DNA from: a virus
Length of the DNA stretch: 64,000 bases
IMG/VR virus record: IMGVR_UViG_3300035454_000441
Reading direction: 5' to 3' (one strand)
How positions within the stretch are numbered: the stretch's first letter is position 1; the number at the start of each line of letters is the position of its first letter. Below, in pieces: positions 13,296 to 60,629 of the stretch. The position numbers and the translations under genes are program-made. Below the pieces are notes generated by a model. The model saw only the letters and a program-made list of their open reading frames with translations, did no database searches and was not told where the DNA came from.

Positions 13296-13436
13296 ATGTT
13301 CACTAAAAAGTTCAAAGACTATCTCCGCGACTCATACATCATTGTCATCCTGATTATCTTGGGTGCATTTGCAACCATCAGCGCAATCCTCATAGCCTGG
13401 CCCGCAATCGCATATCTTGGTGCGAAACTGTTCTAA
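13296..13436 (+). CDS. Possible small membrane protein (46 aa) on the plus strand, convergently overlapping the phosphatase C-terminus
   Basis: RBS AAAGGGAA 7 nt before ATG; hydrophobic core IIVILIILGAFATISAILIAW. Confidence 0.3.
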   Translation: MFTKKFKDYLRDSYIIVILIILGAFATISAILIAWPAIAYLGAKLF

Positions 13437-14174
13437 TTGACCAAAGCGTTTCTCAAAGCCGGGAGTGTTCTGTCCTAGCTTGAGAACGTCCCAATACAGA
13501 CCAACAACGTTGTCCAAGAACTGGTCATCATAGTGCATATGCCCATGGTACCACTTTTTGAAGCCCGAATTGTTTCTGATTTCAAGAAACATATCATTCA
13601 AATGTTGCGCAACCAAGTCCCCCGTCTTAGCACTTGAAGACTCAAACGGACTCATACGTGGCATGGCTCTCAGAGGTGGTACATGGGTGATGACATAGTT
13701 GATGGCCTTACTGCTCCGAATGTTGCTCCAAGCGAGGTCTAGTTCCTGCTCGTTAGGATACTCTCTAGCCCACCAAGAGATATCTTCGGTGCGGTATTGC
13801 TTGTCAATAGACAGACCACCACCAAACACGAATACAGTATCATCACCAAACGTGTAAATGTTTCCACGACGAAGATGATAGATTTCACCCCTTTCGGTCT
13901 TGACTACACCGACCGGTCCACCGAACTTCTCTTCAACTTCGAGGCGGTCAACCATATCGAAGTTCTCATGGTTGCCGTCCACGAAGCAAGTGGTCCAAGG
14001 CTTCTCAGCCAGCCAATCCAACCAGTATCGTTCTTCCTTTGTATTAGCCCAAAGACCACCGAAGTCGCCAGCAATGATGACAACATCCTCTTTAGTCAAA
14101 AGGGTGCCTTGTGGAAAGTTGTCTGTGGTGAATCTATGAAAATCACCATGTGTGTCGCCTGTAATGTAGACCAT
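13332..14174 (-). CDS. Ser/Thr metallophosphatase (calcineurin-like phosphoesterase) with a Cys-rich C-terminal tail
   Basis: GDTHGD, GDFGG, GNHE motifs. Confidence 0.75.
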   Translation of the reverse strand: MVYITGDTHGDFHRFTTDNFPQGTLLTKEDVVIIAGDFGGLWANTKEERYWLDWLAEKPWTTCFVDGNHENFDMVDRLEVEEKFGGPVGVVKTERGEIYHLRRGNIYTFGDDTVFVFGGGLSIDKQYRTEDISWWAREYPNEQELDLAWSNIRSSKAINYVITHVPPLRAMPRMSPFESSSAKTGDLVAQHLNDMFLEIRNNSGFKKWYHGHMHYDDQFLDNVVGLYWDVLKLGQNTPGFEKRFGQLEQFRTKICDCGPGYEDCADGCKCTQDNQDDNDV

Positions 14175-20449: not shown

Positions 20450-21377
20450 TTACTTCGTCACATCGATGAAGGGCATCGGAGCATTCCCACCCATATACGC
20501 GGGTAGCTTACCATCCCACTTCTCAATAGCTTTCAGTTGCACGTATTCCTTACCACCCTGCTTCTGAATAGCCTCTGCCTGAATGCGAATCTGTTCTGCC
20601 TCTGCTTCTGCCATCGCTACCTTCTGCTCGGCTTCGACCTTCACACGCTCAAGGTCATTTCGTGCCTTCATAGCTTGCTGTTCGGCAGTCTGCTTTGCTT
20701 CAATAGCGGCATTGAACGATTGTGAGAAGTGGAAGTTTGTAATCTGAATGTCTTCCACGACCACGTTATACTCAGAGATAGACCGACGGAGGGCAGCCGC
20801 AATCTCATTCTTTACAGCTTCACGCATGGAAAGCAATTGCTCAGCAGAATACTTCGCTACGACTGCCTTTACAACCTCTTGAATACGTGGAGCGATAATC
20901 TTGTTCTCAACGTCTGTACCGATGGTGGAATAAATCTCCGACAGTTTGTTTTCATTGAGGTGATAGTTCAACGCTACCTCAGTATCAACATTTTGAAGGT
21001 CTTTCGTGCCAGCGTTTCGCCGGCGCTTGTGCTTTCTGTGTCTTTACGTCAATGAACACAATGCGGTCACGAATAGGTACTCGGAAGTTCAGACCAGAAC
21101 TAGCAACATTGGAAACAGAGCCGAACGATAGAACGACCGCGCGTTGACCAGCATCAACAGTGTAGAAACAGTTGGTTGCCACCATAATCAGCAATCCCGC
21201 AAGGATGCCGAAGAGTAGATAGCGAACCTTCAACGGAAACACGAACGGCGTCTCCGCTCGTTTGGAAGTGGGAAGAGCATTGTATTCTGCTTTCTCTTCA
21301 ATATACGCCCACACATAAAAACCAATACCCAACAACACAAGCACAATCACGAGGATATTCACGACCAAAGCCAACAT
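20450..21377 (-). pseudogene. SPFH/band-7 (prohibitin/HflKC-like) gene split by a +1 frameshift near 20985-21045; N-terminal part 20985-21377, C-terminal part 20450-21043
   Basis: The N-terminal ORF has a TM segment plus YTVDAGQRAVVLSFG...IDVKTQK. The C-terminal frame continues ...TKDLQNVDTEVALNYH... without a start codon of its own. Confidence 0.5.
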
Positions 21378-22211: not shown

Positions 22212-23597
22212 TTAGATAACAACCTCGTACTTGCTGACAGTGTTCAGCATAACATTACGTGGATTAGTAATGTCGCCAGAAAGTACACCCTTAAGGACCT
22301 GCGGGCTGTAACCACCAATCAACGCGGTGTTACCGTCGTTGCGGAGAACAGGTAGATTGGAACCACGCCCGTTCACGTTCCAGAACACAACAGCCGGCAT
22401 CTTGTAACCGGAAGCCTCATACTGCTTACGGATACGATGATAGGTCGAGTCATCCGCCCCATTGATACAACCATCGAACTGCATATCCGAAACAATCAGG
22501 ATAGCATCAGGTAGTTCCGACTGGTCAAGACGGTTCTTCACTGCCGTGTTGAGGATGGTAGCGAACACTGCATCCAGATTAGTGTTCATACCCCATTCCG
22601 AACGCTCAATATAGTGCATCTTCTGCCCGAGCGTGGTGTACTTGGAAATGTCCTTGAACTCAGGACGCTCGGAGAACGTCACGAACTGGTTCTTGAACTG
22701 ACCCTCATTGCGTTCAGCACAATAGATACCCAGACCAACAGCAATATCGATTGCCTGAATAGACCCCGAGACCGGCGTGAACATGGAACCAGAAACGTCG
22801 ATGACAGGCAGAATGTTACGTTGCTTGCCTTCGAACAGGTCAGGAAGAGCATTCCACTGAACATCCGCGGAAGCATTGTGTTGACGGAGACCACGGACGA
22901 TATCGTGGGGGAATACAGCACCCGCCTTGATAGTGTCCTTACCTTCCTTCACACGATTGATGAAGGCAACAAAACGCTCGTTGTCGTTACGTCCGAACGC
23001 CTTACCGTAGCGAGACATAGCCACAGAAGGGACCGAGGAATACTTGATAACATCCCAACGCTTCGCGCACATGTCCTGCTCAACAGTCCTGGACAGACCA
23101 ACAATCAGCTTACGGAAGCGAGACTCGGAGAGACCCATTTCCTTCGCCAGCTTGAAGAACGAAGCCTTACGGCGTGGAACCCACTTTGCCGCCAGACCAT
23201 TGCCTTCGCGAAGAGCGTTAGCATAGACACGGATCGCGTTAGCCTCACAAGGAGTACCAACGAGTTCCAGAACGTCATCCCAACGACCGTACTTCGGCAC
23301 CAGGTCGATGTTGCGATTGACGTAGGTAGGATGGGTGTTAGCCAGATACTTGAGAGCCTTACGGAAGGCAGAACGCTCCCCCGCGCCGCCGCGGCAGTCA
23401 CGACCCCAGAACACGACCTGCAGGGCAGTCTTCGCGTCTTCGGTCAGAGCCGAACGAAGGTCATTGGTGATATCCTCACGACGGTACTGAACCATCTTGA
23501 AGAACAGATCCACGCATGGATCAAGGGAGGAACGATTGGTGACCGAACCGTTTTCGGTCAGAGTGGTGTTGTTGACGGCATTGAACAGAGTGGACAT
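22212..23597 (-). CDS. vWA-domain protein with an uncharacterised N-terminal domain (DUF2828-like); MIDAS motif DVSGSM
   Basis: LPVIDVSGSMFTPVSGS and IVSDMQF typical of vWA; N-terminal TENGSV...LDPCVDLFF. Confidence 0.6.
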   Translation of the reverse strand: MSTLFNAVNNTTLTENGSVTNRSSLDPCVDLFFKMVQYRREDITNDLRSALTEDAKTALQVVFWGRDCRGGAGERSAFRKALKYLANTHPTYVNRNIDLVPKYGRWDDVLELVGTPCEANAIRVYANALREGNGLAAKWVPRRKASFFKLAKEMGLSESRFRKLIVGLSRTVEQDMCAKRWDVIKYSSVPSVAMSRYGKAFGRNDNERFVAFINRVKEGKDTIKAGAVFPHDIVRGLRQHNASADVQWNALPDLFEGKQRNILPVIDVSGSMFTPVSGSIQAIDIAVGLGIYCAERNEGQFKNQFVTFSERPEFKDISKYTTLGQKMHYIERSEWGMNTNLDAVFATILNTAVKNRLDQSELPDAILIVSDMQFDGCINGADDSTYHRIRKQYEASGYKMPAVVFWNVNGRGSNLPVLRNDGNTALIGGYSPQVLKGVLSGDITNPRNVMLNTVSKYEVVI

Positions 23598-24004: not shown

Positions 24005-24307
24005 TTAATTTAATTGTACATTTCCCGAACCTGTAACGACTACACCAACGGGGCATCCCGCTACAGGGTCAGACATTCGTCCTGCGCCACGCGAAGAAAT
24101 CTGGACGTTCGGCGAAAACCCCACCATAAGAGTTGGATGACCGCAAGTGCAAATTGCCATATCACCTGCACGAACCGTGCCCAGATTGTTGGTCAAAACA
24201 GTAGTATCGCCGGTGATGAAGAAACCCACAACACCGCGGCAGGTCGGATCAGCATGGCAACAACACACCGCGGTGACAATATCACCAACTCTAGCTTGAC
24301 CTAACAT
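24005..24307 (-). CDS. PAAR-repeat spike-tip protein (T4 gp5.4-like)
   Basis: Gly-rich beta-repeat and a Zn site CCCHADPTC...CTCGHP; 100 aa. Confidence 0.55.
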   Translation of the reverse strand: MLGQARVGDIVTAVCCCHADPTCRGVVGFFITGDTTVLTNNLGTVRAGDMAICTCGHPTLMVGFSPNVQISSRGAGRMSDPVAGCPVGVVVTGSGNVQLN

Positions 24308-25014
24308 TAGATGACGCCCGGAGTAATGATACTCATAACTTCGGCAAGAGTACCCGTGGCATTCTGTCCGAACGCAACATATGCATAAGAACTGATGAAA
24401 GCCATTGCACTAGCATTAGCCGAGACCTCACCGCTTCCGGTAGTCTCAAACGTAGCAGTCAACGTGGCGATATCCGCAACAAGAGCCTCGTGGAGTGGTG
24501 TAAAGTTCTCTAGAAGATAACCAACGTCCGGACCTTCACCAATTTCCGGCTGATTGGCAATCAACGCGGCAAACTCCGCCTCATAGCTTGAGTATATAGC
24601 CACTTCGCTGGCTTGATAGTCGGCATCGAAAGTTTTTGTACCCAGAAACATATAGGTACTTTGTTCAGCAACTGGCGGCAGACCATCTAGATTGTTAACC
24701 TCATTCTGAACATTAGTGGCGGATGACAGAAACATCAACTTGGTTTTATAAGCATCATTTGCCAACCAAGTATTGTTATAATGGTCAAGATATACTTCTT
24801 TTAACAATTCAAGGGCAGCCAGAACCTCAGCCTTCTCAACGGAGATATCAACAGGCGTCTCAATGGGTTCTGGATCACCAATCATCTCATAAACGTAAAT
24901 CGTTTCATAAGTGGTATTAGCAACAGTCTTTAACGCATCAATCGCGGTAAAGATAGCTGTATACGGATTGGAGACTGGATTACCAGAGGCATCTATTTTA
25001 TCAGAGTAAGACAT
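24307..25014 (-). CDS. Hypothetical (possibly virion-associated) protein (235 aa)
   Basis: ORF track; adjacent to the PAAR gene. Confidence 0.5.
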   Translation of the reverse strand: MSYSDKIDASGNPVSNPYTAIFTAIDALKTVANTTYETIYVYEMIGDPEPIETPVDISVEKAEVLAALELLKEVYLDHYNNTWLANDAYKTKLMFLSSATNVQNEVNNLDGLPPVAEQSTYMFLGTKTFDADYQASEVAIYSSYEAEFAALIANQPEIGEGPDVGYLLENFTPLHEALVADIATLTATFETTGSGEVSANASAMAFISSYAYVAFGQNATGTLAEVMSIITPGVI

Positions 25015-25295
25015 GGAGACTCCTAAAAGGGTAACCCGTTTTTTTCTGTTTCCAAGACAAAACGGGTAAAATCTCAGTCGCGGTTAAGCGGCAAGGGCAA
25101 AGTCATACTCGCCTTTTATTGCTTTTGTCTGATATACGGCCATGACATTCCGGACTGTCCATCTTCGTACTTGTTACCCAGTCGAAACCTTGGCACCCCC
25201 ATCAACAGCATACTAGCAGAAGCCTCTAATCTCGCCCCAGTGGGCATAACACATGGCCTCAGTGCCCCGATGTGTCCGGGATGATAGTATGCTCT

Positions 25296-25340
25296 TGGTG
25301 GAGGTGGCGGGATCGAACCCGCGTCCTAAGCACCTTTCGG
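25296..25340 (-). other. tRNA 3'-half-like element (T-arm GCGGG-TTCGATC-CCCGC, acceptor 3' strand, CCA) with no matching 5' half
   Basis: Minus strand reads ...gacgcgggttcgatcccgccacctccacca. Confidence 0.45.
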
Positions 25341-25376
25341 TTGACTTCATACAGTCATATTGCTATTTAGTTATTA

Positions 25377-25697
25377 CTAGAAACGTATTTCGTGATCAAC
25401 AAGTGGTCCAAGATACTTGTTAATATCAGGATAAGTGCGAATAGTTTTCCACTCACACCACCTCGGTTTATGATATCCTCGTTCCGCGTGTTCACTAGTA
25501 TCAGAAAGATACTCAAACAGGGCGGCGACCATAAGAATCATAAACGGATGGGTCTTTCTATTCACATTATGATGTTTATTAAACTGTGAAAGATACGCTC
25601 TTCCAGTATCACAATGAGCCACAGTTGTGCAGGACTTCACAACCTTTATGACTTTTTTCAAGTCCGAGTGTGCTTTACAGTTGTCATAGAAACTCAT
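25377..25697 (-). CDS. Hypothetical protein (106 aa)
   Basis: ORF track. Confidence 0.4.
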   Translation of the reverse strand: MSFYDNCKAHSDLKKVIKVVKSCTTVAHCDTGRAYLSQFNKHHNVNRKTHPFMILMVAALFEYLSDTSEHAERGYHKPRWCEWKTIRTYPDINKYLGPLVDHEIRF

Positions 25698-27124: not shown

Positions 27125-28549
27125 TCACAAAATGGGTTTATTTGCGTTCTCCCGAATCTTCTCAAAGTTAGTCAAGGCAACAAACGGCTCATACAGTTTC
27201 TTCGTCATAGTGTAGACCAAGTTCAGGATAATCTTGTCTTCCCAATTCTGGTCATCCAGACGAACGGTTTTTGCCTTGCCTTCCTCGTCCTCCACGACAG
27301 TGAGGCGACCACGTTTGCTTTCTTTGCCCGGTGCTTCCTTGAAAACATCAATCCATTTACCATTGACAAGCAGGGCGCAACACTTCATGGCGAATCCGTA
27401 GGTGTCGCGGTTAACGTGTTGGAGCAGGGCACCACCCATCCCGAATGCTACGTTGTCAGCACTGAAACCTGCCCACTTGAGAGTAGCTAGGATTTCGTTG
27501 ATGCTGGCTTTGTTGATGCCGTCTCCTTGAATAACGCGAACATAAGGAGGAAGCACTTTGTAACCCTTGCTGTTCCGAGTGGTACCAAACTTCTCTGCAA
27601 GGATTTCAACACAACGGCGTACGGTCGGAGCGGGGTCCCCCGAGTCCGGACGAATAACCAGAGTACCACCAACTGCGCCGAGGGCTTCAACATCTGCCTT
27701 CAACTCGGTACCCCAGAGTTCACAAGCCTTGAAGATATCGTAGCTGTCCGAAACAACAGCCACAAGCTTGCCAGGACCGCCGTATTGTTTCAGCATATTG
27801 CGGTATGCTTCAACTTCGTTGTCTTTACCCCAACTGGTGATGGTGCTATGTTCAGCCGCAGGAATACTGAACCCTGCCATCTCTGCACCGTAGTAGTGAT
27901 TGGCATACTGAACACCCTCAACAGTGTCCGAGCCGAGAAAGTTTACAAGGTGAGCCGCACCGCCGATACCAGCAGTTTCACCCGAAGAGCAACCACGACC
28001 ACCGAAGTCATGGAGTTTGAATGCGACTTGCTCTTGAACGTCACTGGTCCGCTCAAGGAAGTCTTTGATGACTTTCTTGCAGTCATAACTTACAGTGGCG
28101 ACCGAAGACGGGTACCAGATGGCGCGAAGTAGAGCCGTTTCGAGGAAGTTCACGATCCAAAAGCACACAGGATCAGTACAACATATCGTAAGTAAGCAAT
28201 TACGATTTTTAATAACAGTTCCTTCAGGTAAAGCCTTGATAGTGACAGGCATATATCCTTTATACTCGGTTAGTATATACTCAAATCCTTGTTTATTGAA
28301 AGGAACCCCATGTGCTTTACAGAACAGTTCAGCCTCTTCAATATCAGCTTGAGTAATCGGGGTGAGTAGATAGTCCTTGATGAACATCTGTAATCCAAAG
28401 AACACAAGATGATCTCCTCCTCTCGCTTCAATATACGATTGCATCCCCTCGGCTCCCGGAGGATATTGTCCTTGATGTTCAGTGTTATTGATACCGATTG
28501 AATGCGAGAATTTGTATGAATCGGTGGATAGTAGGATATTTCTTTTCAT
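27125..28549 (-). CDS. nadV: Nicotinamide phosphoribosyltransferase (NAMPT/NadV)
   Basis: 474 aa; overall NAMPT pattern (..GGGLLQ..DTVFG..); typical phage NAD+ salvage gene. Confidence 0.8.
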   Translation of the reverse strand: MKRNILLSTDSYKFSHSIGINNTEHQGQYPPGAEGMQSYIEARGGDHLVFFGLQMFIKDYLLTPITQADIEEAELFCKAHGVPFNKQGFEYILTEYKGYMPVTIKALPEGTVIKNRNCLLTICCTDPVCFWIVNFLETALLRAIWYPSSVATVSYDCKKVIKDFLERTSDVQEQVAFKLHDFGGRGCSSGETAGIGGAAHLVNFLGSDTVEGVQYANHYYGAEMAGFSIPAAEHSTITSWGKDNEVEAYRNMLKQYGGPGKLVAVVSDSYDIFKACELWGTELKADVEALGAVGGTLVIRPDSGDPAPTVRRCVEILAEKFGTTRNSKGYKVLPPYVRVIQGDGINKASINEILATLKWAGFSADNVAFGMGGALLQHVNRDTYGFAMKCCALLVNGKWIDVFKEAPGKESKRGRLTVVEDEEGKAKTVRLDDQNWEDKIILNLVYTMTKKLYEPFVALTNFEKIRENANKPIL

Positions 28550-28592: not shown

Positions 28593-29123
28593 TCACTTAT
28601 TGAATTGGTGTTTATAAGCCCGTTCTAACCAGATTTTCCATTGCTCTAAACTATGTTCTTTCTTGGAGTAGTTACAAGCAGAACAACATGGTACAACGTT
28701 ATCTAGTGTGTAACCCTTGTTATTATCTACCCTATCAATACCGTTATACAGCAACGTATCATAGACCATTCTCATTTCTGTGTTCGGTACTGTACCACAA
28801 TAGTAGCATGACTGTTGCGTAATGTCAACCACATTTTGTAGTGTAAGTTCGAATAATATACCTCTCTTCTTGGCACCGCTTACGTAACGTCTGTACAACT
28901 TTCGTTTGAGACCCATTTGGTCGGGGAATCGACGATTTGGTCTAGGTGGTGAACAATCTTTACACGCCAGGCGTATTGAGTTACGTAAATCCGTAATATG
29001 TGCGTATCTAACACCACCACACTCACACTGACATACCCACTTCTTACGTTCATTATCAAAGTATGTCAGTGTGAGTTTTCCATATTTCTCGCCGCTTGTT
29101 GCTGAGTTATTTGTTCTTGCCAT
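28593..29123 (-). CDS. HNH homing endonuclease
   Basis: C-terminal HNH box DRVDNNKGYTLDNVVPCCSACNYSKK. Confidence 0.75.
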   Translation of the reverse strand: MARTNNSATSGEKYGKLTLTYFDNERKKWVCQCECGGVRYAHITDLRNSIRLACKDCSPPRPNRRFPDQMGLKRKLYRRYVSGAKKRGILFELTLQNVVDITQQSCYYCGTVPNTEMRMVYDTLLYNGIDRVDNNKGYTLDNVVPCCSACNYSKKEHSLEQWKIWLERAYKHQFNK

Positions 29124-29191: not shown

Positions 29192-29317
29192 TCACTCCTT
29201 TTCGGTAATCAGGCTCAACTGCCCACAAGCGGCGCCGGCGGCAACTTCGGCTTCTGTAGCGATAGCAACAGCGAAGTCAAAACCGGCTTCTTTAAGTTCC
29301 TGAGCGATTTTCTCCAT
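29192..29317 (-). CDS. Detached C-terminal fragment of the RlmN/Cfr-like enzyme (carries the conserved ...AACGQL Cys motif)
   Basis: MEKIAQELKEAGFDFAVAI...AAGAACGQLS resembles the RlmN C-terminus; strong RBS AAGGAGA. Confidence 0.5.
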   Translation of the reverse strand: MEKIAQELKEAGFDFAVAIATEAEVAAGAACGQLSLITEKE

Positions 29318-29327
29318 GGTATTCTCC

Positions 29328-30131
29328 TTAGATAATGTTAGTTGTGGTAATGATGCCGGCGCCCAGCCCATTCTGGTCGCTAATCTCATTACGATTGATT
29401 GGTGATAGCTTGATGAAGAAATACTTTGGGTCAAAATACCTCTTGAGTTTGTCAATGTCAAAGTCCGCTTCATCGACCAGTGTAAGATTCACAGTGGTCT
29501 TCAACTTGCTTTTGGTGCGAATCTGACCAAGTTCTTCAATGGTCATCAGATTGTTCACTGGAATAAGTTCACGCCTGCGGTCTTCATCTAGTGAATGAAG
29601 ACTAATCTGGAGCGTGATGTTGTCCTTAATCCAAGAGAAGTCCGACCCCCTAACGCCGATAGTGCTGATATAGTGATGAAACAGAATATCATTTCTGTGT
29701 TGCTGGAACATATCAATAGCTTTCCTGACTTCATCAATATTCAGAAAAGGCTCACCCATGCGAGTATAGTTAATCTTGAGTTCCTTGGGATGTTCGAAGC
29801 CAAGAGAATCCAAGAATTCCTCGTTCTTCTCAAGCATAACAAACTTGACTTGGTCTGTAATCTCCTTAGCAGTAAGATTGCGCCAGCCCTTCATCTGCCC
29901 AGTGGCGCAGAACTTACATCCAACAGGACAACCGGACATAGTGGACACACCAATCATCCAGCGTTCTGCTCTGGAGCCGATATTACCATCCCGCAACGCA
30001 TTGGTGCCGTTGACACACTCCTTGGTATAGTAAGGCAGAAATGTGTCCGTAGTCTCAATCAGTCGCCCGTCTTCCAGTTCAAGACAGTAGACGGATCCGT
30101 TTGTGAAATGTCGGCTTCGTAGTTCTTTCAT
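29328..30131 (-). CDS. RlmN/Cfr-family radical SAM RNA methyltransferase (N-terminal and core part; frameshifted relative to the C-terminal fragment)
   Basis: CPVGCKFCATGQ (RlmN GCxxxCxFCxTG), RMGEPFLN, LQISLHSLDEDRRRELIPVN. Confidence 0.65.
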   Translation of the reverse strand: MKELRSRHFTNGSVYCLELEDGRLIETTDTFLPYYTKECVNGTNALRDGNIGSRAERWMIGVSTMSGCPVGCKFCATGQMKGWRNLTAKEITDQVKFVMLEKNEEFLDSLGFEHPKELKINYTRMGEPFLNIDEVRKAIDMFQQHRNDILFHHYISTIGVRGSDFSWIKDNITLQISLHSLDEDRRRELIPVNNLMTIEELGQIRTKSKLKTTVNLTLVDEADFDIDKLKRYFDPKYFFIKLSPINRNEISDQNGLGAGIITTTNII

Positions 30132-30133
30132 CG

Positions 30134-31165
30134 TTAAATTCCTAGCAAGTCGGTAATGATATCGTAGTGATCCTCAAAAAGACGGTCGGGCTCCAGTTCC
30201 GAGATGGGCAGCCAGAAAGCCTTCTCCGCATCATCGGCGCCTTTGACTCGCGGCAGGTCACCACAGTTCGGTAGTTCAATGAGGAATGCGTTAGTCACAG
30301 TACGTCCGCGAAGACTACGTTCAGGAGCATCATACACCTTCTGGCGCTTGATACAACCCCTCAGGACGGGCATGGGAACCTTAATCTTAGTCTCTTCACG
30401 AAGTTCCCGAAGCATACCATCAATAAGCGTTTCCTCTTGATTGAGAAAGCCACCCGGCAAGGCATACAGTCCTTTACCCGGTTCTGCCCGGCGCTTCACC
30501 AGCAGAATATGACCAGACTGAATGACAACAGCATCCGTGGTCAGAAATGTCACGGGATAAGGAGCAACAGCCCATGACTCTTTATATCCCTTGATGTAGA
30601 AATACTCCTGAACCAGTTGCTTGAACTCCGGTGTTTGAGTAAAGCCTTGGAGATACTGGAACACGGTCGGTGGTACAAACTTCTCAAAGTAATCAAACTT
30701 GAAGTATCTATCACGCAAGGCGGTGGCGTGAAGATGGCTCAGTTCTTCATCAAAGCCCGCGGGCGAGATGAAATGCCACTGCGGGAACATATCGATGTAC
30801 CAACTGGTGTAGTCTTCCTTGTTACCCGTGATAGCGATACTCCCAAAGTCCGGATCGCCGTTGTCGGAAAGGATGACTTGGTCCACCACGTTCTGTACAT
30901 GCATGGCCCATTTCTGGTCATTGTAGGTGAAGTCGTTGAGATAACCATACAGAACGCGGCTATCGTTATCAGTGACGCCTCGAATCATAGACACACGTTC
31001 ACTAGCAGTGAACGGGTTCTTGATTGTACGAGGACGATTAGCCGTGCCGATTAAGACAATGACCTTCTCGGAGTACTTCAAGGCGTTTTCTAGAATAGCT
31101 TGATGGTTCTTGTGGAAGGGCTGAAATCGCCCGATGAATACGCAATACTTGTGTTTTTTAAGCAT
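30134..31165 (-). CDS. nadM: Bifunctional NMN adenylyltransferase / Nudix hydrolase (NadM-Nudix, NatV-like)
   Basis: GRFQPFHKNH nucleotidyltransferase motif; Nudix box GGFLNQEETLIDGMLRELREETKI. Confidence 0.85.
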   Translation of the reverse strand: MLKKHKYCVFIGRFQPFHKNHQAILENALKYSEKVIVLIGTANRPRTIKNPFTASERVSMIRGVTDNDSRVLYGYLNDFTYNDQKWAMHVQNVVDQVILSDNGDPDFGSIAITGNKEDYTSWYIDMFPQWHFISPAGFDEELSHLHATALRDRYFKFDYFEKFVPPTVFQYLQGFTQTPEFKQLVQEYFYIKGYKESWAVAPYPVTFLTTDAVVIQSGHILLVKRRAEPGKGLYALPGGFLNQEETLIDGMLRELREETKIKVPMPVLRGCIKRQKVYDAPERSLRGRTVTNAFLIELPNCGDLPRVKGADDAEKAFWLPISELEPDRLFEDHYDIITDLLGI

Positions 31166-35542: not shown

Positions 35543-35721
35543 ACATCAAACTCCTTAATACGTTTTAATGCCTTTGAACCATCACATATGTCCTCAAGAG
35601 GATGCTTGGGAGTCTGTAGTTGTAGCCCAAGGAGATACGTATTCAACTCAAATATTACACCGTTCACCTCAAACGTGGGTTTATCTTCCCCACTCATACG
35701 GCGCATTGACCTCCCGCGCAA
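35539..35721 (-). CDS. Hypothetical protein (60 aa)
   Basis: ORF track. Confidence 0.3.
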   Translation of the reverse strand: MRGRSMRRMSGEDKPTFEVNGVIFELNTYLLGLQLQTPKHPLEDICDGSKALKRIKEFDV

Positions 35722-37544
35722 GCTTGTTCACCTTGTAAATCTGTGTTGTCATCCCGTTCTATAACTTTCTTTATATCAATGTCGTGCATAAACGACATAA
35801 GACGGTCATACTCTTCTTTACTACAATCTTCGAAGGGAGCCTGTGGATAGTCGTGACCATCGTAAGGAAGAACTGAGATGCCATTATAGAACTCACGATT
35901 GTTCCACATCCACTTAGCGACTCTATCCCATTCGTGTTGCTTGATAGAGATAGTGCAAGAGACGTTGTGATGATTGGCACCCGTCCTATAACCAGGTCTG
36001 ACCCACTCTGTATTGAACTTCTTAACACGCTCAAGCAAGTCCATGACCTTCTCATTGCGAAGGATAGAACCTTCTGGAGCTTTCTGTGGGAACGAGATAA
36101 CAGACTCCAAATGTGGTTTGAACTTACAATCTTCCACCAACTCCGGAAAGTTCTCACTCATATAATGGAATAGGGCTTCATTCTTTCCGACTCGCACTCG
36201 ACGGATATAGTAGTCGTTGTGCCATGCGTGAATACCCGAGGAAGAGCCGACCACTAAAGACGATGTACCAGACGGCTTAACTGTCGTTGTTCTAGCCGCC
36301 GGCTGAATGTTCAGAAGATAAGCATACTTCCCGTTCGTTACTCTGACAACCTCGGCTGCCTCGCGAAGGTCTAGCTTGAGTACAGCACCCGAGGCAATAC
36401 CAGTCATACCCACACCAATCAACGCCTCCTTGTCTGTGGTGTCTTTCCAGATGTTTCTCAAGTAGTGAAAGTTAGTGTATGCGGCTTGGAGAGTTCCAAT
36501 AACTGCCGCGGCCTCGCAACGGTCATTGAGGTCCTTCTGGTCTTCAACATCGGAGACATTGACCTCTGTAAGATTACAGAACTGGTAAGGGTTCAAAGAG
36601 ATTTCGCAACAGGGGTTGGTGAATACGTCCTTGTCGTTTGTCCAATAGAAACCGGGCTCACCCGCACCAGAGTTTTTGACAACTTCCCAAAGCTTCTGGA
36701 ATTCTTCTTCTGTGACTTCACCGCGTGGTAGCACAACAGAGTTGTTTGACCTACCGCGTTGGGGGTTCAGTTCGTACCAAGAGTTTGTCTTACAGTAAAG
36801 CATATCAAGATCATCGCGGTCAAATCCACAAATCATGGCTGCCCGACGAATACCACCAGCTAGAACAGCGTCGGCAATGAAGCAACACATATCATAGACT
36901 TCTAGACTAGTGAGTTGGCGTCCGATGGCTCCGTTGAGAATAGAGCGCAAACGTTCAATGCAAATCTTGAGCGGATCGGGTCCAGGTGCCTTGCCACCAG
37001 ATGTGACAAGACGGGCACCTTTCGGACGGATATCGCGGTAGTCAAACTCGGGATTAGACTTGCCCTTGGTATACGCTTTAATCAGGACCTTGATAGCATC
37101 CGCCCAACCTTCAATGCTATCACCAATCAGATAACGGCGTGGTCTGTCTGTTGGTCCGACGATAACAGGTAGCTTGCTGATATGATGCTTCTGAACAGAG
37201 AAACCAACACCCGTACCACCCAGAAGCAAAAACATCAGTTCTGCAAAGGCGAACGGATGCTCCATGGGCATATAGGCGCAATTGAAAATCCTAGAATTGG
37301 AAATCTCAATAGGAGTACCAGCAAACTGCATTGACCTCATAGAGGGAAGCACTTTGCGTGGTATGATGAAGTTGTCGTAGATTTTTGCTATATCTTCGCG
37401 GATATGTGGAAACTTGGAGATATGCATACCCATGTTTCGGTAGCATATCTCTTCCCAAGTTTCTCGGCGGTTTAGTCGTGGATTGTGTTTCGCGTATTTG
37501 TTAAAGACAATAATATCACTCAAAATCTTCTGTGAAATATCCAT
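35694..37544 (-). CDS. Ribonucleotide reductase large subunit, probably class II (NrdJ-like; no NrdB gene adjacent)
   Basis: Active-site TNPCCEISL (NPCxE), C-terminal CAGGQC redox pair, no glycyl-radical motif, no ATP cone. Confidence 0.6.
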   Translation of the reverse strand: MDISQKILSDIIVFNKYAKHNPRLNRRETWEEICYRNMGMHISKFPHIREDIAKIYDNFIIPRKVLPSMRSMQFAGTPIEISNSRIFNCAYMPMEHPFAFAELMFLLLGGTGVGFSVQKHHISKLPVIVGPTDRPRRYLIGDSIEGWADAIKVLIKAYTKGKSNPEFDYRDIRPKGARLVTSGGKAPGPDPLKICIERLRSILNGAIGRQLTSLEVYDMCCFIADAVLAGGIRRAAMICGFDRDDLDMLYCKTNSWYELNPQRGRSNNSVVLPRGEVTEEEFQKLWEVVKNSGAGEPGFYWTNDKDVFTNPCCEISLNPYQFCNLTEVNVSDVEDQKDLNDRCEAAAVIGTLQAAYTNFHYLRNIWKDTTDKEALIGVGMTGIASGAVLKLDLREAAEVVRVTNGKYAYLLNIQPAARTTTVKPSGTSSLVVGSSSGIHAWHNDYYIRRVRVGKNEALFHYMSENFPELVEDCKFKPHLESVISFPQKAPEGSILRNEKVMDLLERVKKFNTEWVRPGYRTGANHHNVSCTISIKQHEWDRVAKWMWNNREFYNGISVLPYDGHDYPQAPFEDCSKEEYDRLMSFMHDIDIKKVIERDDNTDLQGEQACAGGQCAV

Positions 37545-56133: not shown

Positions 56134-56208
56134 TGGTACCCCCTAGTGGAATTGAACCACTTTCTTCGCTTTGTAAGAGCGACATAATGCCCATTATACG
56201 AAGGGGGC
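56134..56208 (-). tRNA. tRNA-Val (anticodon UAC)
   Basis: Acceptor gccccct/agggggt, anticodon stem tcgct/agcga, loop CTTACAA, T-loop TTCAATT, CCA. Confidence 0.65.
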
Positions 56209-56214
56209 TTAAAA

Positions 56215-56292
56215 TGGTCAGGCGGGTGGGAGTCGAACCCACATTGTCCGGGTCACAGCCGAACCGATTTATTCCTTTAATCTTACCACCTG
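56215..56292 (-). tRNA. tRNA-His (anticodon GUG)
   Basis: Acceptor caggtgg/ccgcctg, anticodon loop CTGTGAC, T-arm GTGGG-TTCGACT-CCCAC, CCA. Confidence 0.6.
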
Positions 56293-56452
56293 ATGAAACG
56301 GTAACCGTAGCTTATTTCCAGGTCACTACTGACAAGGTCAAGCGAACACACCCAACAGAGGATGGGCCCTACCTCGTTGCTGTGGTCATCTAGTACACTG
56401 GGGCTATGCTGGAAAGTATTCCCCAATCTCGTAAGGTATCACCACACACACG

Positions 56453-56965
56453 TTACCAAATTCCGTATTCTACAAGCAAGTCATAGGCATTCATATTCTG
56501 AGCCTTAATCTGGAGAAACTCCATGATTGTAGGCTGAGTTGGTCTCTTCTTGAGGTACATCTTAGCCTCAGAACAGGTCATGTCTGCCTTTGCTGAGTTA
56601 CACTCGGAACACGCGGTAGCAGTGTTTGTCCAAGTGTTTCCACCACCCTTTGACTTTGGAAGAACATGGTCAATTGTTGGCTTCTCAACATACTTGCCAC
56701 AGTACTGACAAATATATCCGTCACGAATGAAGACGTTACGCTTGTTCCACTTGACAGCACGACCATAGAACTTGCGAACTGCCTTGATTAGCTGAATGAC
56801 CAATGGCTTGAAATACTTCTCATTCAACTTCTCGCCTGTTTCCTTGAGCGCAACAGCGGAGCCGTTAGCTATCTTAATCATAGCCTTCTTAACCGTTGTA
56901 AAACCCATGAAGGTCATATCATAGTTGAGTACAAGTACATTCTTCTTTGTCTTCTGCTTTGCCAT
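56453..56965 (-). CDS. HNH homing endonuclease
   Basis: HVLPKSKGGGNTWTNTATACSECNSAK. Confidence 0.75.
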   Translation of the reverse strand: MAKQKTKKNVLVLNYDMTFMGFTTVKKAMIKIANGSAVALKETGEKLNEKYFKPLVIQLIKAVRKFYGRAVKWNKRNVFIRDGYICQYCGKYVEKPTIDHVLPKSKGGGNTWTNTATACSECNSAKADMTCSEAKMYLKKRPTQPTIMEFLQIKAQNMNAYDLLVEYGIW

Positions 56966-57012
56966 AAGTCACCATAGTTTAGAATACAATTGAATATAGA
57001 CTATAAAATATA

Positions 57013-57699
57013 CTACTTCAACCTTCTGCCTTTTCGCCATCCATCTGGAATTGTTTCCCCAATCTTTAACTTTTTGTTATCGATTTCGTTTGTAATCCAA
57101 AATGAACCATATTGCGAATTGAGTTTACCCGAGTGTTTGCCCATAGCAGATTCACTCATTTTCTTTTTTGTTTCCTCTGTGTGTTTTTTACCCAAAAAGC
57201 TTTTGCGATTAACAAGGACTTCTTTATTGTTGTTCCAATACTCTTTCATAGCAAGAAGACCTTTTAATCTCCCGACATTTTTCCCATCAATGATACGTTT
57301 TCGTGTCGCTTCGTCTAATTCTAAAAATCGTTCTTGATTGCTAAACGGTGAAACGAGTTTTTGGTAGTTATCATCATATCTTTTATTTTTATCTGAACAA
57401 CAACCCGTGTTAACATGATCCCAACCACCTTCCCCACCCACTTTGAGATTGTAACATTCACCTGATTCAAGTAAATCAACAGTGACTAGTTCCTTCTCTT
57501 TAGTGAATGCTTCCTCAGGTGTACCAAAGATGAATAGAACTTCTTTAGTGAAATGTTCTATGCCATACTTTTCTATGGCTCTTTTCAGTAACTTACCCGA
57601 ACCCACGTAATCATCATACGGATTAGTTGTTTTATGAACACCGATATAATAACGTTCATTAACTTTGTTTGTTGTTTTATATACGGTATAAACGTACAT
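57013..57699 (-). CDS. GIY-YIG homing endonuclease (Seg-like), paralog of 59582..60295
   Basis: YVYTVYKTTNKVNERYYIGVHKT... Confidence 0.8.
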   Translation of the reverse strand: MYVYTVYKTTNKVNERYYIGVHKTTNPYDDYVGSGKLLKRAIEKYGIEHFTKEVLFIFGTPEEAFTKEKELVTVDLLESGECYNLKVGGEGGWDHVNTGCCSDKNKRYDDNYQKLVSPFSNQERFLELDEATRKRIIDGKNVGRLKGLLAMKEYWNNNKEVLVNRKSFLGKKHTEETKKKMSESAMGKHSGKLNSQYGSFWITNEIDNKKLKIGETIPDGWRKGRRLK

Positions 57700-57770
57700 A
57701 CTTTAGAGAGTCCTTTCGCCCACGGAACTTCACTTCTATTTAGTGAAGTTCAACTCTCTAAAGTATGTCA
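57700..57770 (-). promoter_or_regulatory. Nested inverted repeats immediately 5' of the seg-like start codon (possible translational control hairpin)
   Basis: ctttagagagt...actctctaaag enclosing gaacttcac...gtgaagttc. Confidence 0.4.
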
Positions 57771-57774
57771 AAAG

Positions 57775-57861
57775 CGGAAGAGGGGTGGATTTGAACCCCC
57801 ATCGGTTTTGAGACCTACACTGACTTTCGAGGTCAGCCGCTTACCGTTAGCGTACTCTTCC
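57775..57861 (-). tRNA. tRNA-Ser (anticodon CGA), CCA not encoded
   Basis: Acceptor ggaagag/ctcttcc, anticodon stem ctgac/gtcag, loop CTCGAAA, long variable arm. Confidence 0.55.
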
Positions 57862-58113
57862 GTTGTTGGTGCCCTATGCACCAAGCGTAATTTTGTTCGT
57901 ATTCGTCAAAAAAGTTATATGGGTTCACATCACTTTCAGATAGTATACCCTCTTTGAACTCTTTTGTCAAGTGCAAAGCCATTGCTTTGCCTTTTGGCAC
58001 AATTGGACTTCTCATAATCACTTTCTCTAAATGAATTGACGATTGAATATAGCCGAGGGAGTGTTAGTTCCAGAGTGGTCGGCAATAGCCACGTTTCAAC
58101 CGTCAAATTAAAA

Positions 58114-58206
58114 TGGAGGAGCAGGACGGATTCGAACCCTCAGTCCGCTTCTTACACGGACACTTGTTTTCAAGACAAGGCCCCGACCACTGGGGTCAAC
58201 TGCTCC
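58114..58206 (-). tRNA. tRNA-Ser (anticodon UGA)
   Basis: Acceptor ggagcag/ctgctcc, anticodon stem cttgt/acaag, loop CTTGAAA, T-loop TTCGAAT, CCA. Confidence 0.6.
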
Positions 58207-58211
58207 TTAAA

Positions 58212-58652
58212 TTACCAAAGCTTATATTCTAGTTCCACACCCGCACCATCGTATCCCCTTTCATCTTCACTGAACGCGCAAGAGTGGTGTGTGTACTTCA
58301 AGTTTGTTCTGAACCTGGAGTCCTCTGATTGATAGAGATGATACCTCAATCCAAGATTACTTGTTGTGTGAGTATCGTTTCCATCATCGTCACACATAGG
58401 ACTAATTTTTTTCGTGTAGTCCAAGCCAGCGTAAACAGAAGCCCCGTTGTTAAACTTACCAGAACAACCAAACATCATTGATAAAAGAACCAAGAGAAGT
58501 GGTATAGTGACTGCTAACACAATTCCCTTTAAAATACCTTTACCCGTGTCTGTCTTGAAATACTCTTTCAGGTTTACGTCTCGCAAAGACCAAAGCATCC
58601 AGACGATTAGAATGGCCAATGCTGTTGCTACAAACTCAATACCACTAAACAT
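58212..58652 (-). CDS. Membrane/secreted protein (start at MFSGIEFV; RBS AGGAG) located inside the tRNA array
   Basis: N-terminal TM/signal segment; C-terminal ...GAGVELEYKLW. Confidence 0.45.
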   Translation of the reverse strand: MFSGIEFVATALAILIVWMLWSLRDVNLKEYFKTDTGKGILKGIVLAVTIPLLLVLLSMMFGCSGKFNNGASVYAGLDYTKKISPMCDDDGNDTHTTSNLGLRYHLYQSEDSRFRTNLKYTHHSCAFSEDERGYDGAGVELEYKLW

Positions 58653-58691
58653 AGTTGTTACTCCTTTTGGTGTTAGTGATATATTTAGTTT

Positions 58692-58766
58692 TGGTACTCC
58701 CAAGTGGAGTCGAGCCACTATCTTTGCCGTGTCGAGGCAATGTAATTTCCCTTATACGATGGGAGT
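58692..58766 (-). tRNA. tRNA with anticodon loop TCGACAC (anticodon GAC, Val-like; atypical C33)
   Basis: Acceptor actccca/tgggagt, T-arm AGTGG-CTCGACT-CCACT, CCA. Confidence 0.45.
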
Positions 58767-58847
58767 AAAGACGACCGCACATTCTTCTGAATGATTATTC
58801 CTTGTGGGATTTTAGACTTACGCCGAGTTGGTTGTGGTCATCAAAAC

Positions 58848-58940
58848 TGGAGGAAGGCTAGATACTCGAAATCTATACGGAGTCTTAGTCCGTACTCACC
58901 GCTTTCCAAGCGGGACCTGCTCCTCGCTGGTTAACCTTCC
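58848..58940 (-). tRNA. tRNA-Ser (anticodon GGA)
   Basis: Acceptor ggaaggt/gccttcc, anticodon loop TTGGAAA, T-arm TAGAT-TTCGAGT-ATCTA, long variable arm, CCA. Confidence 0.55.
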
Positions 58941-58945
58941 GAAAC

Positions 58946-59020
58946 TGGAGCCCACACCGAGAATCGAACTCGGAACTTCTCCTTACCAAAGAGATGTTTT
59001 ACCACTAGAACTATGCGGGC
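58946..59020 (-). tRNA. tRNA-Thr (anticodon GGU)
   Basis: Acceptor gcccgca/tgtgggc, D-loop AGTGGTA, anticodon loop TTGGTAA, T-arm CCGAG-TTCGATT-CTCGG, CCA. Confidence 0.6.
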
Positions 59021-59062
59021 ATATCTGAGTACTCTAAAAGGACCACTGTTCTGCCACTGAAC

Positions 59063-59200
59063 TACCTGCACACTATTGATGCAGAATGGGAGTCGAACCC
59101 ATGACGCGCGGTTTGGGATTAAATTGCTGTAGGTACTCATTGAAATTATACTGGATGCTTTTCTTCGTGCCTCTACCAGTTGGGCTACCAGTGCATAGTT
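59063..59200 (-). ncRNA. Degenerate tRNA-like element (T-arm ATGGG-TTCGACT-CCCAT; D-arm-like GTTC-AGTGGCA-GAAC lies 3' of it; no CCA)
   Basis: No consistent cloverleaf could be drawn. Confidence 0.3.
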
Positions 59201-59300
59201 GGCGCACTGGGTAGGATTCGAACCTACACTTGCCGGCTTTCACAGAGCGAGTTTTTGTTGCTGAATGCATCCATTTTTGTTTTTACTGTTTGCGTTGAGA
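59200..59300 (-). ncRNA. Degenerate tRNA-like element (T-arm GTAGG-TTCGAAT-CCTAC, acceptor 3' strand ccagtgc, CCA at 59200; 5' half unrecognisable)
   Basis: 3' module canonical; only a 5/7-pairing 5' strand found. Confidence 0.3.
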
Positions 59301-59387
59301 CCTTCTCTCAATAGGGCGGAGTCGAACCGTTCCTTGCCTGATTTTGGTGGCAAATTAAAATTGCTGTATGCAAACAAAAGTTGTAAT
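59300..59387 (-). ncRNA. Degenerate tRNA-like element (T-loop TTCGACT with a weak stem; no acceptor pairing, no CCA)
   Basis: ggcggagtcgaaccg on the plus strand. Confidence 0.25.
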
Positions 59388-59461
59388 TGGCAGGGGATAC
59401 AGGAGTCAAACCCGTACTTGTCGCTTCAAAGGCGCCTGTGCTATCGCTACACCAATCCCCA
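59388..59461 (-). tRNA. tRNA-Gln (anticodon UUG)
   Basis: Acceptor tggggat/atcccct (U1.U72 mismatch), anticodon loop CTTTGAA, T-loop TTTGACT, CCA. Confidence 0.5.
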
Positions 59462-59466
59462 TCAAA

Positions 59467-59550
59467 TGGCAGTCCGTGTGGGAGTCAAACCCACCAAGAA
59501 TTGTTTCAGAGACACTTCCGTACATCGGTACCCGGACAACAAATGGTAGC
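59467..59550 (-). ncRNA. tRNA-like element (T-arm GTGGG-TTTGACT-CCCAC, acggact-g-CCA) with an unresolved 5' half
   Basis: 3' module canonical; no complementary 5' acceptor strand found. Confidence 0.3.
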
Positions 59551-59581
59551 TAGTGTGAGTGCTGATCTCACCTAGTCATTC

Positions 59582-60295
59582 TTATGAGGAACGACCGTTC
59601 ACCGGAACCCTAGCCATATATCTTCCTTTAACCCATCCCTGTTCAAGATAGGTTTGTAAATCGTCTTTTTTTATAGTTTTGTTCTGTTGACTACTTGGGT
59701 TATGTATAAAACATTTTCCATACATGGGATTATTGGGACCCGAACGCTCAACTTCTTTTTGTGCTTTCTTCAAATGTTGTAATGTTTCTTCTGTGTGTTT
59801 TCTTCCCTTAAAAGGATTAGAAGTGTCTAGTGTTGGGCGTATTTCTTCATTCCATCGCTTTAAACCACTACGTTCATATGTCAATTTACCCACAACTGTT
59901 CTCCAAGACTCCCCGTAACGTTCTTTTAGAATTCTATCAGTCGTTTCTCTACCTCGTTTACACAATTCTTGATTTACAACAAATGGATTACCCAGTTTAT
60001 CGTTGATGTAGTCAAACCCACCTTCACCCCCACACTTCAAGTTGTAACACAATCCCTCTTCAAGTATGTCATCTGTTACTAGTTGTGCTTCCATGGCAAA
60101 GGCGTCTTCTGGTGTATCAAATATGAATAGTATATCTTTGGTAAAGTTTTCTATTCCATGTTTGTTGATTGCTAGTTTAAGTAACTTACCAGAACCCATA
60201 TAATTGTCATATGGATTAGTTGTCTTATGAACACCAATATAAAAGCGATTGTTTAACTTATTCGTAGTCTTATAGACTGTGTAAACTGCGGACAT
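59582..60295 (-). CDS. GIY-YIG homing endonuclease (Seg-like), paralog of 57013..57699
   Basis: SAVYTVYKTTNKLNNRFYIGVHKT... Confidence 0.8.
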   Translation of the reverse strand: MSAVYTVYKTTNKLNNRFYIGVHKTTNPYDNYMGSGKLLKLAINKHGIENFTKDILFIFDTPEDAFAMEAQLVTDDILEEGLCYNLKCGGEGGFDYINDKLGNPFVVNQELCKRGRETTDRILKERYGESWRTVVGKLTYERSGLKRWNEEIRPTLDTSNPFKGRKHTEETLQHLKKAQKEVERSGPNNPMYGKCFIHNPSSQQNKTIKKDDLQTYLEQGWVKGRYMARVPVNGRSS

Positions 60296-60360
60296 ACTCC
60301 AGAGTACCTTTCTAATGGAACTTCACTTTTATTTAGTGAAGTTCGATACTCTGGAGTATG
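60296..60360 (-). promoter_or_regulatory. Nested inverted repeats 5' of the seg-like start codon (same architecture as 57700-57770)
   Basis: ctccagagta...tactctggag enclosing gaacttcac...gtgaagttc. Confidence 0.4.
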
Positions 60361-60367
60361 TCAAAGG

Positions 60368-60434
60368 AGCGGGTGTGGGTAACGATCCCACTAATTCGGG
60401 GTTATGAACCCCGACGGCCTCCTAGGCTACCCGC
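60368..60434 (-). ncRNA. Short (67 nt) tRNA-Met(CAU)-like element. Anticodon stem has three G-C pairs (CGGGG/CCCCG), D-arm truncated, T-loop atypical (ATCGTTA), no CCA
   Basis: gcgggta...cgggg-TTCATAA-ccccg...gtggg-atcgtta-cccac-acccgc. Confidence 0.4.
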
Positions 60435-60547
60435 ATCATTTAAAAAGAGAAGTCTTGACTGGGTGGATTGCCTCCCCACCTCTAGTTTGGTCTGTTGTTA
60501 ATAACGGTCGACCGGCATCTAGTGTTTTGTTTCGTCAAGACTTCAAT

Positions 60548-60625
60548 TGGTAGGAACGGAGGGAGTCGAACCCTCAGTATACTTGGCCCTCAACCAAGCC
60601 CGTATGCCAATTCCGGCACGTTCCC
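60548..60625 (-). tRNA. tRNA with anticodon GAG (Leu codons) but a short variable arm (class-I shape)
   Basis: Acceptor gggaacg/cgttcct, D-arm tgcc-ggaatt-ggca, anticodon loop TTGAGGG, T-arm GAGGG-TTCGACT-CCCTC, CCA. Confidence 0.45.
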
Positions 60626-60629
60626 ATAA

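Follow-up and report, generated by a model that had tools for sequence, protein, structure and literature searches.

RlmN and Cfr are, to our knowledge, the only characterized class A radical S-adenosylmethionine (SAM) methylases, and the two-cysteine ping-pong mechanism by which they work is a textbook example. In RlmN, C355 carries the methyl group, C118 (C105 in Cfr) is indispensable for resolving the covalent crosslink between enzyme and RNA, and the C118A substitution traps that crosslink (PMC9692996), in agreement with the titles of PDB entries 4pl1, 5hr6 and 5hr7, which name C118A crosslinked to tRNA. Here we describe a related locus at positions 29,192–30,131 of a 64,000-nucleotide (nt) stretch of viral DNA (IMG/VR record IMGVR_UViG_3300035454_000441; hereafter the window), where a 267-amino-acid (aa) open reading frame (ORF) with the motifs of RlmN is followed by a 41-aa ORF bearing the sequence AACGQL. 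A first-pass annotation had presented the locus as an RlmN/Cfr-like methyltransferase split by a frameshift, and had listed a programmed frameshift, a genuinely split two-piece enzyme and a pseudogene or sequencing error as possible explanations. Based on comparison with related loci, we consider it likely that the two ORFs are a genuinely two-piece, phage-borne relative of RlmN and Cfr, with the catalytic cysteine supplied in trans.

Relationship to RlmN and Cfr

The large ORF carries the motifs SGCPVGCKFCATG, TRMGEPF and LQISLHS and ends just past the SPINxN strand. Its only Pfam match is the generic Radical_SAM domain (PF04055, E = 3e-8), and the NCBIfam model for RlmN, TIGR00048, aligns with it over model positions 102–244 (E = 3e-22, 79.1 bits). 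The 41-aa ORF, MEKIAQELKEAGFDFAVAIATEAEVAAGAACGQLSLITEKE, lies in the +1 frame relative to the large ORF, starts 10 nt past its stop codon (ATG at 29317) and has its own ribosome-binding site (AAGGAG). When this peptide was appended to the large protein, the TIGR00048 match reached model position 342 (of 355) and the score rose by 7.8 bits, to 86.9 bits; the large subunit and the concatenation are both far below the cut-offs of TIGR00048 (290 bits) and of the Cfr models (468–550 bits). When searched against PDB sequences with phmmer, the concatenation aligned with RlmN (6fz6, 4pl1, 5hr6 and 3rf9) right through AACGQL.

Comparison of the peptide profile to one RlmN with hhalign gave a match of eight columns (E = 2e-4), and in its place we used a hidden Markov model (HMM) of 34 canonical RlmN C-termini with shuffled sequences as controls. 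All 40 distinct family peptides scored 9.9–24.3 bits against this model, compared to 5.6 bits for the best of 2000 shuffles, and the C-terminus of a natural fused relative (P0175) resembles the family peptide. By sequence, then, the 267-aa protein is a radical-SAM core with a CX3CX2C cluster and SAM-binding motifs, and the separately encoded 41-aa protein is a predicted detached C-terminal fold element consisting of a helix, a beta-strand and a flexible AACGQL loop. These results bear out what the first-pass annotation had read from the letters: the large ORF is homologous to RlmN and Cfr and lacks the C-terminal cysteine segment, and that segment, itself related to the RlmN C-terminus, is encoded by a separately initiated ORF.

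The peptide belongs to no Pfam, NCBIfam or PHROG family, the match of the large subunit, phrog_24834, is labelled 'unknown function' and the JGI automatic annotation assigns both pieces to RlmN. When the region and 23 kb of the window were compared with 50,697 phage records by megablast, no match was returned, and because no close DNA relative was present among these records, we relied on protein-level searches.

Conservation of the two-gene layout

A search of a collection of 5.8 billion proteins with the large protein gave 2419 homologues (E ≤ 1e-10), of which the best 120 were 209–283 aa long (nearly all 257–283 aa) and in no case fused to the cysteine segment. All large proteins in an 11-sequence alignment stopped at the same place, with N265 invariant and conservation reaching the last residues. 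Likewise, in a library clustered at 50% identity, near-full-length close relatives that ended with the match were 263–294 aa long, had glycine at the C118 position and lacked a C-terminal CGQ.

Of 85 loci from phages and IMG/VR, 81 had an ORF of ~40 aa with AACGQ on the same strand within 3 kb. In a scan of 185,579 species genomes, all 39 loci at ≥40% identity had glycine at the C118 position and no fused cysteine, and 38 of them had a stand-alone peptide gene, located upstream of the large gene once (L119). The 41 more distant hits from the same scan were cellular RlmN-type proteins with cysteine at the C118 position, most of which had a fused C-terminal CGQ, and no family peptide gene was found near any of them. 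Overall, the stand-alone ~40-aa AACGQ peptide gene was present in 119 of 124 related loci, and a profile built from the peptide retrieved 2835 stand-alone homologues of 39–48 aa in addition to a few tandem or partial duplications.

Spacing and order of the two genes vary considerably. Kehishuvirus 'tikkala', a crAss-like Bacteroides phage, encodes proteins of 262 and 43 aa; Moorella phage MTATph1 encodes proteins of 274 and 40 aa, the second in frame after the stop codon of the first and separated by a 15-nt spacer; and in Vibrio phage D479 a 281-aa protein is accompanied by an ORF with two tandem copies of the peptide (L005, 2800–3081). The peptide gene comes second among the ORFs downstream of the large gene in Pectobacterium phage Arno18 and Yersinia phage P778. 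Across loci, the gap between the large gene and the peptide gene was either 2–59 nt, in relative frames 0, 1 and 2, or 262–1899 nt, and in dozens of loci one to ~15 genes separate the two ORFs. The closest relative (L086; 73% identity and syntenic between NatV and NadV) has its peptide gene 5.6 kb downstream, behind ~15 genes. Those 5.6 kb also encode a third radical-SAM protein, an NT5C nucleotidase, a Tpt1/KptA RNA 2'-phosphotransferase (an enzyme that uses NAD+) and a DUF1937 protein (13362–13925 and neighbours).

Among 53 distinct nucleotide versions of the peptide gene, synonymous sites were saturated (pS = 0.79) compared to a pN of 0.22 (pN/pS = 0.28), and positions G12, A18, A20, T21, E24 and A29–Q33 of the peptide were invariant. 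The comparative evidence thus identifies two separate genes that are maintained by selection, and the split would be the ancestral state of the close family, in which no fused member was listed. Two further features of individual family members were seen. Besides D479, two tandem copies of the cysteine peptide occur within one ORF in P0271 and P0272, which are on different contigs, and other members of P0271–P0274 duplicate the cysteine loop or the strand partly. In the 50%-identity library, one split-family large subunit (P0122, 601 aa) contains an intein (Hint and LAGLIDADG) at or just after the CX3CX2C motif.

Departures from the RlmN/Cfr architecture

The family lacks the resolving cysteine. 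In phmmer alignments, the column of RlmN C118 and Cfr C105 reads 'MIGVSTMSGC' in the window versus 'TVCVSCQVGC' and 'CISSQCGC', with Gly61 in register. In a MAFFT alignment, this column held glycine in 45 of 45 split proteins, whereas of 45 fused relatives 32 had cysteine there and the other 13 had I, T, N or V, and glycine occupied the position in 216 of 221 distinct large subunits. Apart from the three cluster ligands, no cysteine is conserved within these 221 sequences. Single-chain relatives without C118 do exist (P0175 and a clade of ~300-aa proteins with 'GSNCGQ'), which suggests that C118 may have been lost before the split or together with it; these single-chain proteins all fall short of every NCBIfam cut-off.

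Domain content and charge differ as well. The N-terminal RlmN_N domain (PF21016) had no match in the large ORF, and the TIGR00048 alignment begins only at position 102 of 355. Median isoelectric points (pI) were 6.1 for large subunits and 4.2 for peptides, versus 8.9 for canonical RlmN; in the window, the large subunit has a pI of 6.11 and a net charge of −3, and the peptide has a net charge of −5.5.

Predicted structure

AlphaFold2 (AF2) gave a predicted local distance difference test (pLDDT) score of 35 for the concatenated window sequence alone. With a final alignment composed of split large subunits and fused natural homologues as anchors, the concatenation was modelled at a pLDDT of 92.8 and a predicted template modelling (pTM) score of 0.91; MAFFT alignments that included free peptides were discarded because they misplaced the peptides onto the N-terminus of the large subunit. 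The modelled peptide part comprises a helix (266–277), a strand (281–284), a short helix, the cysteine loop and a terminal helix. In a Foldseek search of the PDB with this model, RlmN and Cfr accounted for the top 11 matches (E = 5e-15 to 1.5e-8; TM scores of 0.56–0.69), followed by TYW1 at 1e-3. The model thereby supports assignment of the predicted fold to RlmN/Cfr.

Gene neighbourhood and NAD+ genes

Positions of the two genes, their key residues and the surrounding genes are listed in Table 1. From one end to the other, the order is NatV, large subunit, peptide, a weakly HNH-like ORF and NadV, so that NatV and NadV, both enzymes of the NARP2 type, bracket the cassette, and the NadV/NatV pair is interrupted in the window by the genes of both subunits and the HNH-like ORF. 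The last of these is possibly a mobile endonuclease insertion that lies outside the enzyme. A sigma-70-like site (TTGACA, 17 nt, TATTTT; 10 of 12 matches) is found at 29433–29461 on the minus strand, within the large ORF near its 3' end and ~115 nt upstream of the peptide ATG; in a promoter and terminator scan around the two genes, site counts were no higher than chance.

Table 1 Features of the radical-SAM locus and adjacent genes in the window
Feature	Position	Strand	Basis or remark
Large subunit gene, 267-aa RlmN/Cfr-like radical-SAM core	29328..30131	-	CDS 30131..29331 plus TAA 29330-29328
CPVGCKFC, the CX3CX2C motif (Cys68/72/75) of the predicted radical-SAM [4Fe-4S] cluster	29907..29930	-	Conserved across 220-221 of 221 distinct large subunits
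Gly61 codon, aligned with resolving cysteine C118 of RlmN and C105 of Cfr	29949..29951	-	phmmer alignments to 9p0p and 6fz6; MAFFT column
TAAGGAG, large-gene stop overlapping the peptide-gene Shine-Dalgarno sequence (AAGGAG 29329-29324), 6 nt before the ATG	29324..29330	-	Sequence
Small subunit gene, 41-aa acidic micro-protein	29192..29317	-	CDS 29317..29195 plus TGA 29194-29192; homologous to RlmN C-terminal helix, strand and Cys loop
Peptide Cys31 codon (AACGQL), equivalent of methyl-carrying Cys355 of E. coli RlmN	29225..29227	-	Alignment; invariant in 53 distinct sequences
NatV-type nicotinamide mononucleotide (NMN) adenylyltransferase-Nudix gene (CTP_transf_like and NUDIX)	30134..31165	-	Pfam; ends 2 nt before the large-subunit ATG
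NadV nicotinamide phosphoribosyltransferase gene (PF04095, PF18127)	27125..28549	-	Pfam
176-aa ORF between the peptide gene and NadV	28593..29123	-	Weak, sub-threshold Pfam HNH and zinc-ribbon matches

To describe the neighbourhood across the family, ORFs from the 124 loci were clustered and the loci dereplicated to 50 groups at 80% identity of the large subunit. The most widely recurring neighbour was NatV (NMN adenylyltransferase [NMNAT]-Nudix; 14 of 50 groups), followed by NadV (Nampt; ten groups), a MoaA/viperin-like second radical-SAM protein (rSAM2; nine groups), a small class I methyltransferase (nine groups) and NadE (five groups). No other gene recurred across groups, including tRNA genes. 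At least one NAD gene was located within 3–4 kb in 18 of the 50 groups, on the same strand and often abutting, and NadV and NatV occurred together in eight groups in several different gene orders. For reference, NARP2 (Nampt plus Nmnat) has been found in ~1.1% of phage genomes (bioRxiv 10.1101/2024.02.11.579819), a baseline that comes from a different dataset and is to be read with the clustering of phage accessory genes in islands and the lack of phylogenetic independence among groups in mind. A radical-SAM partner is mentioned neither in that study nor in the NARP3 paper or the jumbo-phage NAD+ paper. Judging by gene neighbourhood, the radical-SAM pair may have a role in NAD+ metabolism.

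In several loci (L025, 3780–4968; L086, 9211–11096; L006, L028, L033, L075 and L120/L121), the subunit genes enclose or adjoin those for rSAM2 (~255 aa) and the class I methyltransferase (~148 aa), and in crAss-like phages the four genes form an operon in the order large subunit, rSAM2, methyltransferase and peptide, with overlapping starts. By tblastn, the 64-kb window has no homologue of rSAM2 or of this methyltransferase. Among distant RlmN-like proteins without the N-terminal domain, we identified fusions to isochorismatase (P0192, P0203 and P0250, all lacking C118), Nudix (P0213), HD phosphohydrolase (P0194) and a second radical-SAM domain (P0146). The targets of all these partners are nucleotides or small molecules, not RNA, and the fusions hint that the wider branch without the N-terminal domain may act on small nucleotides.

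Weighing the alternatives

Several points weigh against the two-piece reading. Formation of the complex and expression of both proteins are predictions from sequence; the N-terminal half of the peptide (helix and strand) is colinear with RlmN C-termini but scores 4.6 bits, compared to a shuffle maximum of 5.7; and four loci had no peptide gene within the retrieved flanks. The AF2 model does not provide independent evidence of docking, because an artificial concatenation aligned with fused homologues favours the RlmN arrangement. Finally, there is no equivalent of C118, so the canonical catalytic cycle cannot be assumed.

The explanations that would make one protein of the two ORFs can be set aside. 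A programmed +1 ribosomal frameshift or stop-codon bypass, yielding a single protein of RlmN length, would fit the frame and the 10-nt distance of the small ORF in the window and its in-frame position after a stop in MTATph1. However, spacers of 2–59 nt in all three relative frames, genes intervening in dozens of loci and a peptide gene upstream in one leave no fixed frame relation or overlap that is kept across homologues. The peptide ORF also has its own ATG family-wide, with a canonical Shine–Dalgarno sequence in the window, and the upstream part of its frame (a 93-aa extension) is merely open and shows no conservation across the family. An indel, whether in a decayed pseudogene or from sequencing or assembly, could hide as a 1-nt error in one window, and cellular RlmN is indeed a single polypeptide, but close homologues from independent assemblies share the same end point, purifying selection acts on the peptide ORF, whose synonymous sites are saturated, and the large subunit of one family member hosts an intein. 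Taken together, the family-wide two-gene layout and purifying selection on the peptide refute frameshifting, to which we assign next to no probability, as well as the pseudogene and error readings, whose chances are just as negligible. Of the explanations first put forward, the split enzyme is thus the one that stands, given two genes in 119 of 124 loci and no fused member found within the close family; a frameshift is contradicted by the arrangement in >100 divergent loci with variable spacers, frames and intervening genes, and the switch point formerly placed near 29355–29375 falls where the large ORF is still conserved on its way to its last residues.

Two further alternatives concern what the pair does. 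If it had ordinary RlmN/Cfr function, the heterodimer would methylate C2 or C8 of adenosine in host or phage tRNA or rRNA, such as A37 of tRNA or A2503 of 23S rRNA, in line with the 2-methyladenosine (m2A) role that the first-pass annotation had implied when it placed the gene next to a large tRNA set. The nearest relatives in sequence and fold are RlmN and Cfr, the phage encodes 18 tRNAs and a different, fused RlmN-like protein that keeps C118 lies inside the tRNA cluster of Stenotrophomonas phage BUCTxx99. Nonetheless, we regard this function as unlikely: the resolving cysteine, described as indispensable (PMC9692996), is glycine in 216 of 221 sequences with no other cysteine conserved, the RNA-binding RlmN_N domain was not found in the Pfam scan, both proteins are acidic compared to basic RlmN, the score of 87 bits is far under the 290-bit family cut-off and the neighbours belong to NAD+ salvage. 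The window's tRNA genes (56134–63588) are 26 kb from the cassette and are not recurrent neighbours. Alternatively, the peptide could be a substrate, similar to the precursor of a ribosomally synthesized and post-translationally modified peptide (RiPP), which the radical-SAM enzyme would modify together with rSAM2 and the methyltransferase in some phages. This would account for a short acidic peptide encoded beside radical-SAM genes, for operons of large subunit, MoaA/viperin-like rSAM, class I methyltransferase and peptide in nine of 50 lineages and for the tandem and partial duplications. We consider it quite improbable, as the peptide is colinear with a structural part of RlmN and has a fused relative, no SPASM domain or RiPP recognition element (RRE) appeared above noise in Pfam and NCBIfam, no leader/core architecture was detected, neither a protease nor an exporter recurs among the neighbours and the sequence around the cysteine is near-invariant, unlike variable RiPP cores.

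Proposed mechanism and substrate

For the two-piece enzyme, we propose that the peptide would dock on the core by strand completion and that a first SAM would methylate its Cys31, in the role of C355. A second SAM would then be cleaved to a 5'-deoxyadenosyl radical, which would abstract a hydrogen from the S-methyl group, and the resulting thiomethylene radical would add to an sp2 carbon of the substrate. Because the family has glycine where RlmN and Cfr have the crosslink-resolving cysteine, the reaction could end in two ways, with either another base releasing the methylated product or the peptide staying attached and being consumed.

Gene neighbourhood, protein charge and the domain fusions of relatives speak for a free nucleotide or an NAD-related molecule as the substrate at least as strongly as for RNA. 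We rate the former at somewhat short of an even chance and RNA as rather doubtful, and leave the remainder to some other kind of substrate. In a bolder version that we hold to be improbable, the enzyme would be a natural 'C118-less' RlmN with the 40-aa peptide as a single-use co-substrate, left methylene-bridged to its target: the S-methylcysteine-derived radical would add to the adenine or pyridinium ring of a nucleotide, such as NAD+, ADP-ribose or an NAD-derived immune signal, or to a ring in RNA. If true, the enzyme would conjugate a peptide to a nucleotide inside a phage NAD+ counter-defence module, and splitting of the gene would allow an excess of the consumable part. A reagent needed in excess would fit the strong ribosome-binding site of the peptide gene and its tandem duplications in some phages.

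Implications

A large, selected family in which the methyl-carrying cysteine sits on a micro-protein and the resolving cysteine is missing tests which parts of the RlmN/Cfr mechanism are essential, and new chemistry may emerge from it, such as resolution by another base or a covalent adduct of the peptide. The pair is found repeatedly within NAD+ salvage modules, which suggests an unrecognized accessory to NAD+ reconstitution or another nucleotide-directed counter-defence, and fusion of relatives to Nudix, HD and isochorismatase domains points the same way. Current annotation misses thousands of ~40-aa genes or leaves them hypothetical, and the automatic label 'rRNA methyltransferase RlmN' is probably wrong for the large subunits. 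In full-text literature searches, we came across no account of an RlmN-like phage enzyme that is split or C118-less.

Other features of the window

Elsewhere in the window, an SPFH/Band_7 gene is present as two adjacent minus-strand ORFs, 21377..20985 (130 aa, membrane anchor and profile positions 2–45) and 20971..20450 (173 aa, profile positions 67–176), and this pair (20450–21377) may be another split, frameshifted or interrupted gene. ARAGORN called a candidate permuted 'tmRNA*' (transfer-messenger RNA) at 24993–25387 on the minus strand, with the tag GEYDFALAA*, overlapping the start of ORF 24307..25014. Also on the minus strand are a 461-aa DUF2828/DUF7788 protein (22212–23597) and a 616-aa protein (35694–37544) with phage homologues that bear the annotation ribonucleotide reductase (in Sinorhizobium phage phiM6, B12-dependent nrdJ). 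Identity to the best phage matches is only ~60% (Oceanospirillum, Vibrio and Microcystis phages), indicating that the phage is novel.

Comparison with known systems

The idea of a consumable protein has precedents in sacrificial reagents such as the sulfur donor Thi4 and the methyl acceptors Ada and MGMT, but these are a conceptual analogy only, with no homology, and consumption of the peptide is hypothetical. The NARP2 pathway (NadV plus NatV; KVP40) is represented by both enzymes in the window, and its association with the pair recurs in many lineages; as described, NARP2 consists of two enzymes and has no radical-SAM component.

Unsplit RlmN-like proteins without the N-terminal domain (P0175, the ~300-aa 'GSNCGQ' clade and a 319-aa protein of phage BUCTxx99) likewise have a minimal core, and several lack C118 (I, V, T or N in its place). 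In contrast to the split family, they are single polypeptides, some of which keep C118 and some of which are fused to isochorismatase, Nudix or HD domains. The BUCTxx99 protein (OR529408.1; L167, 2492–3451), deposited as a 'prohibitin family protein', is a fused RlmN-like radical-SAM protein with both catalytic cysteines; its label is a mis-annotation, and a link to SPFH/prohibitin was dropped.

RlmN (E. coli; PDB 3RFA and 5HR6/5HR7) and Cfr (PDB 9P0P) share with the family the CX3CX2C, MGEP and SLH motifs, they are the best matches in the PDB to its predicted fold and their methyl carriers, C355 and C338, have an equivalent in the cysteine of the xAACGQL loop. They differ in being single polypeptides with C118 or C105, whereas the family has glycine at that position, a separate 41-aa cysteine-loop protein, no N-terminal RNA-recognition domain and an ~18-aa insertion before the cluster strand; moreover, RlmN is basic and RlmN/Cfr-type genes are housekeeping genes, whereas the family is acidic and phage-borne. 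A parallel is provided by the C118A and C118S mutants of RlmN, which trap a covalent crosslink to RNA and in which the resolving cysteine is gone and the methyl-carrying cysteine kept, as in the natural state of the family. Those mutants are engineered, single-chain dead ends on RNA, whereas the state of the family is under selection, with the cysteine on a small detachable protein.

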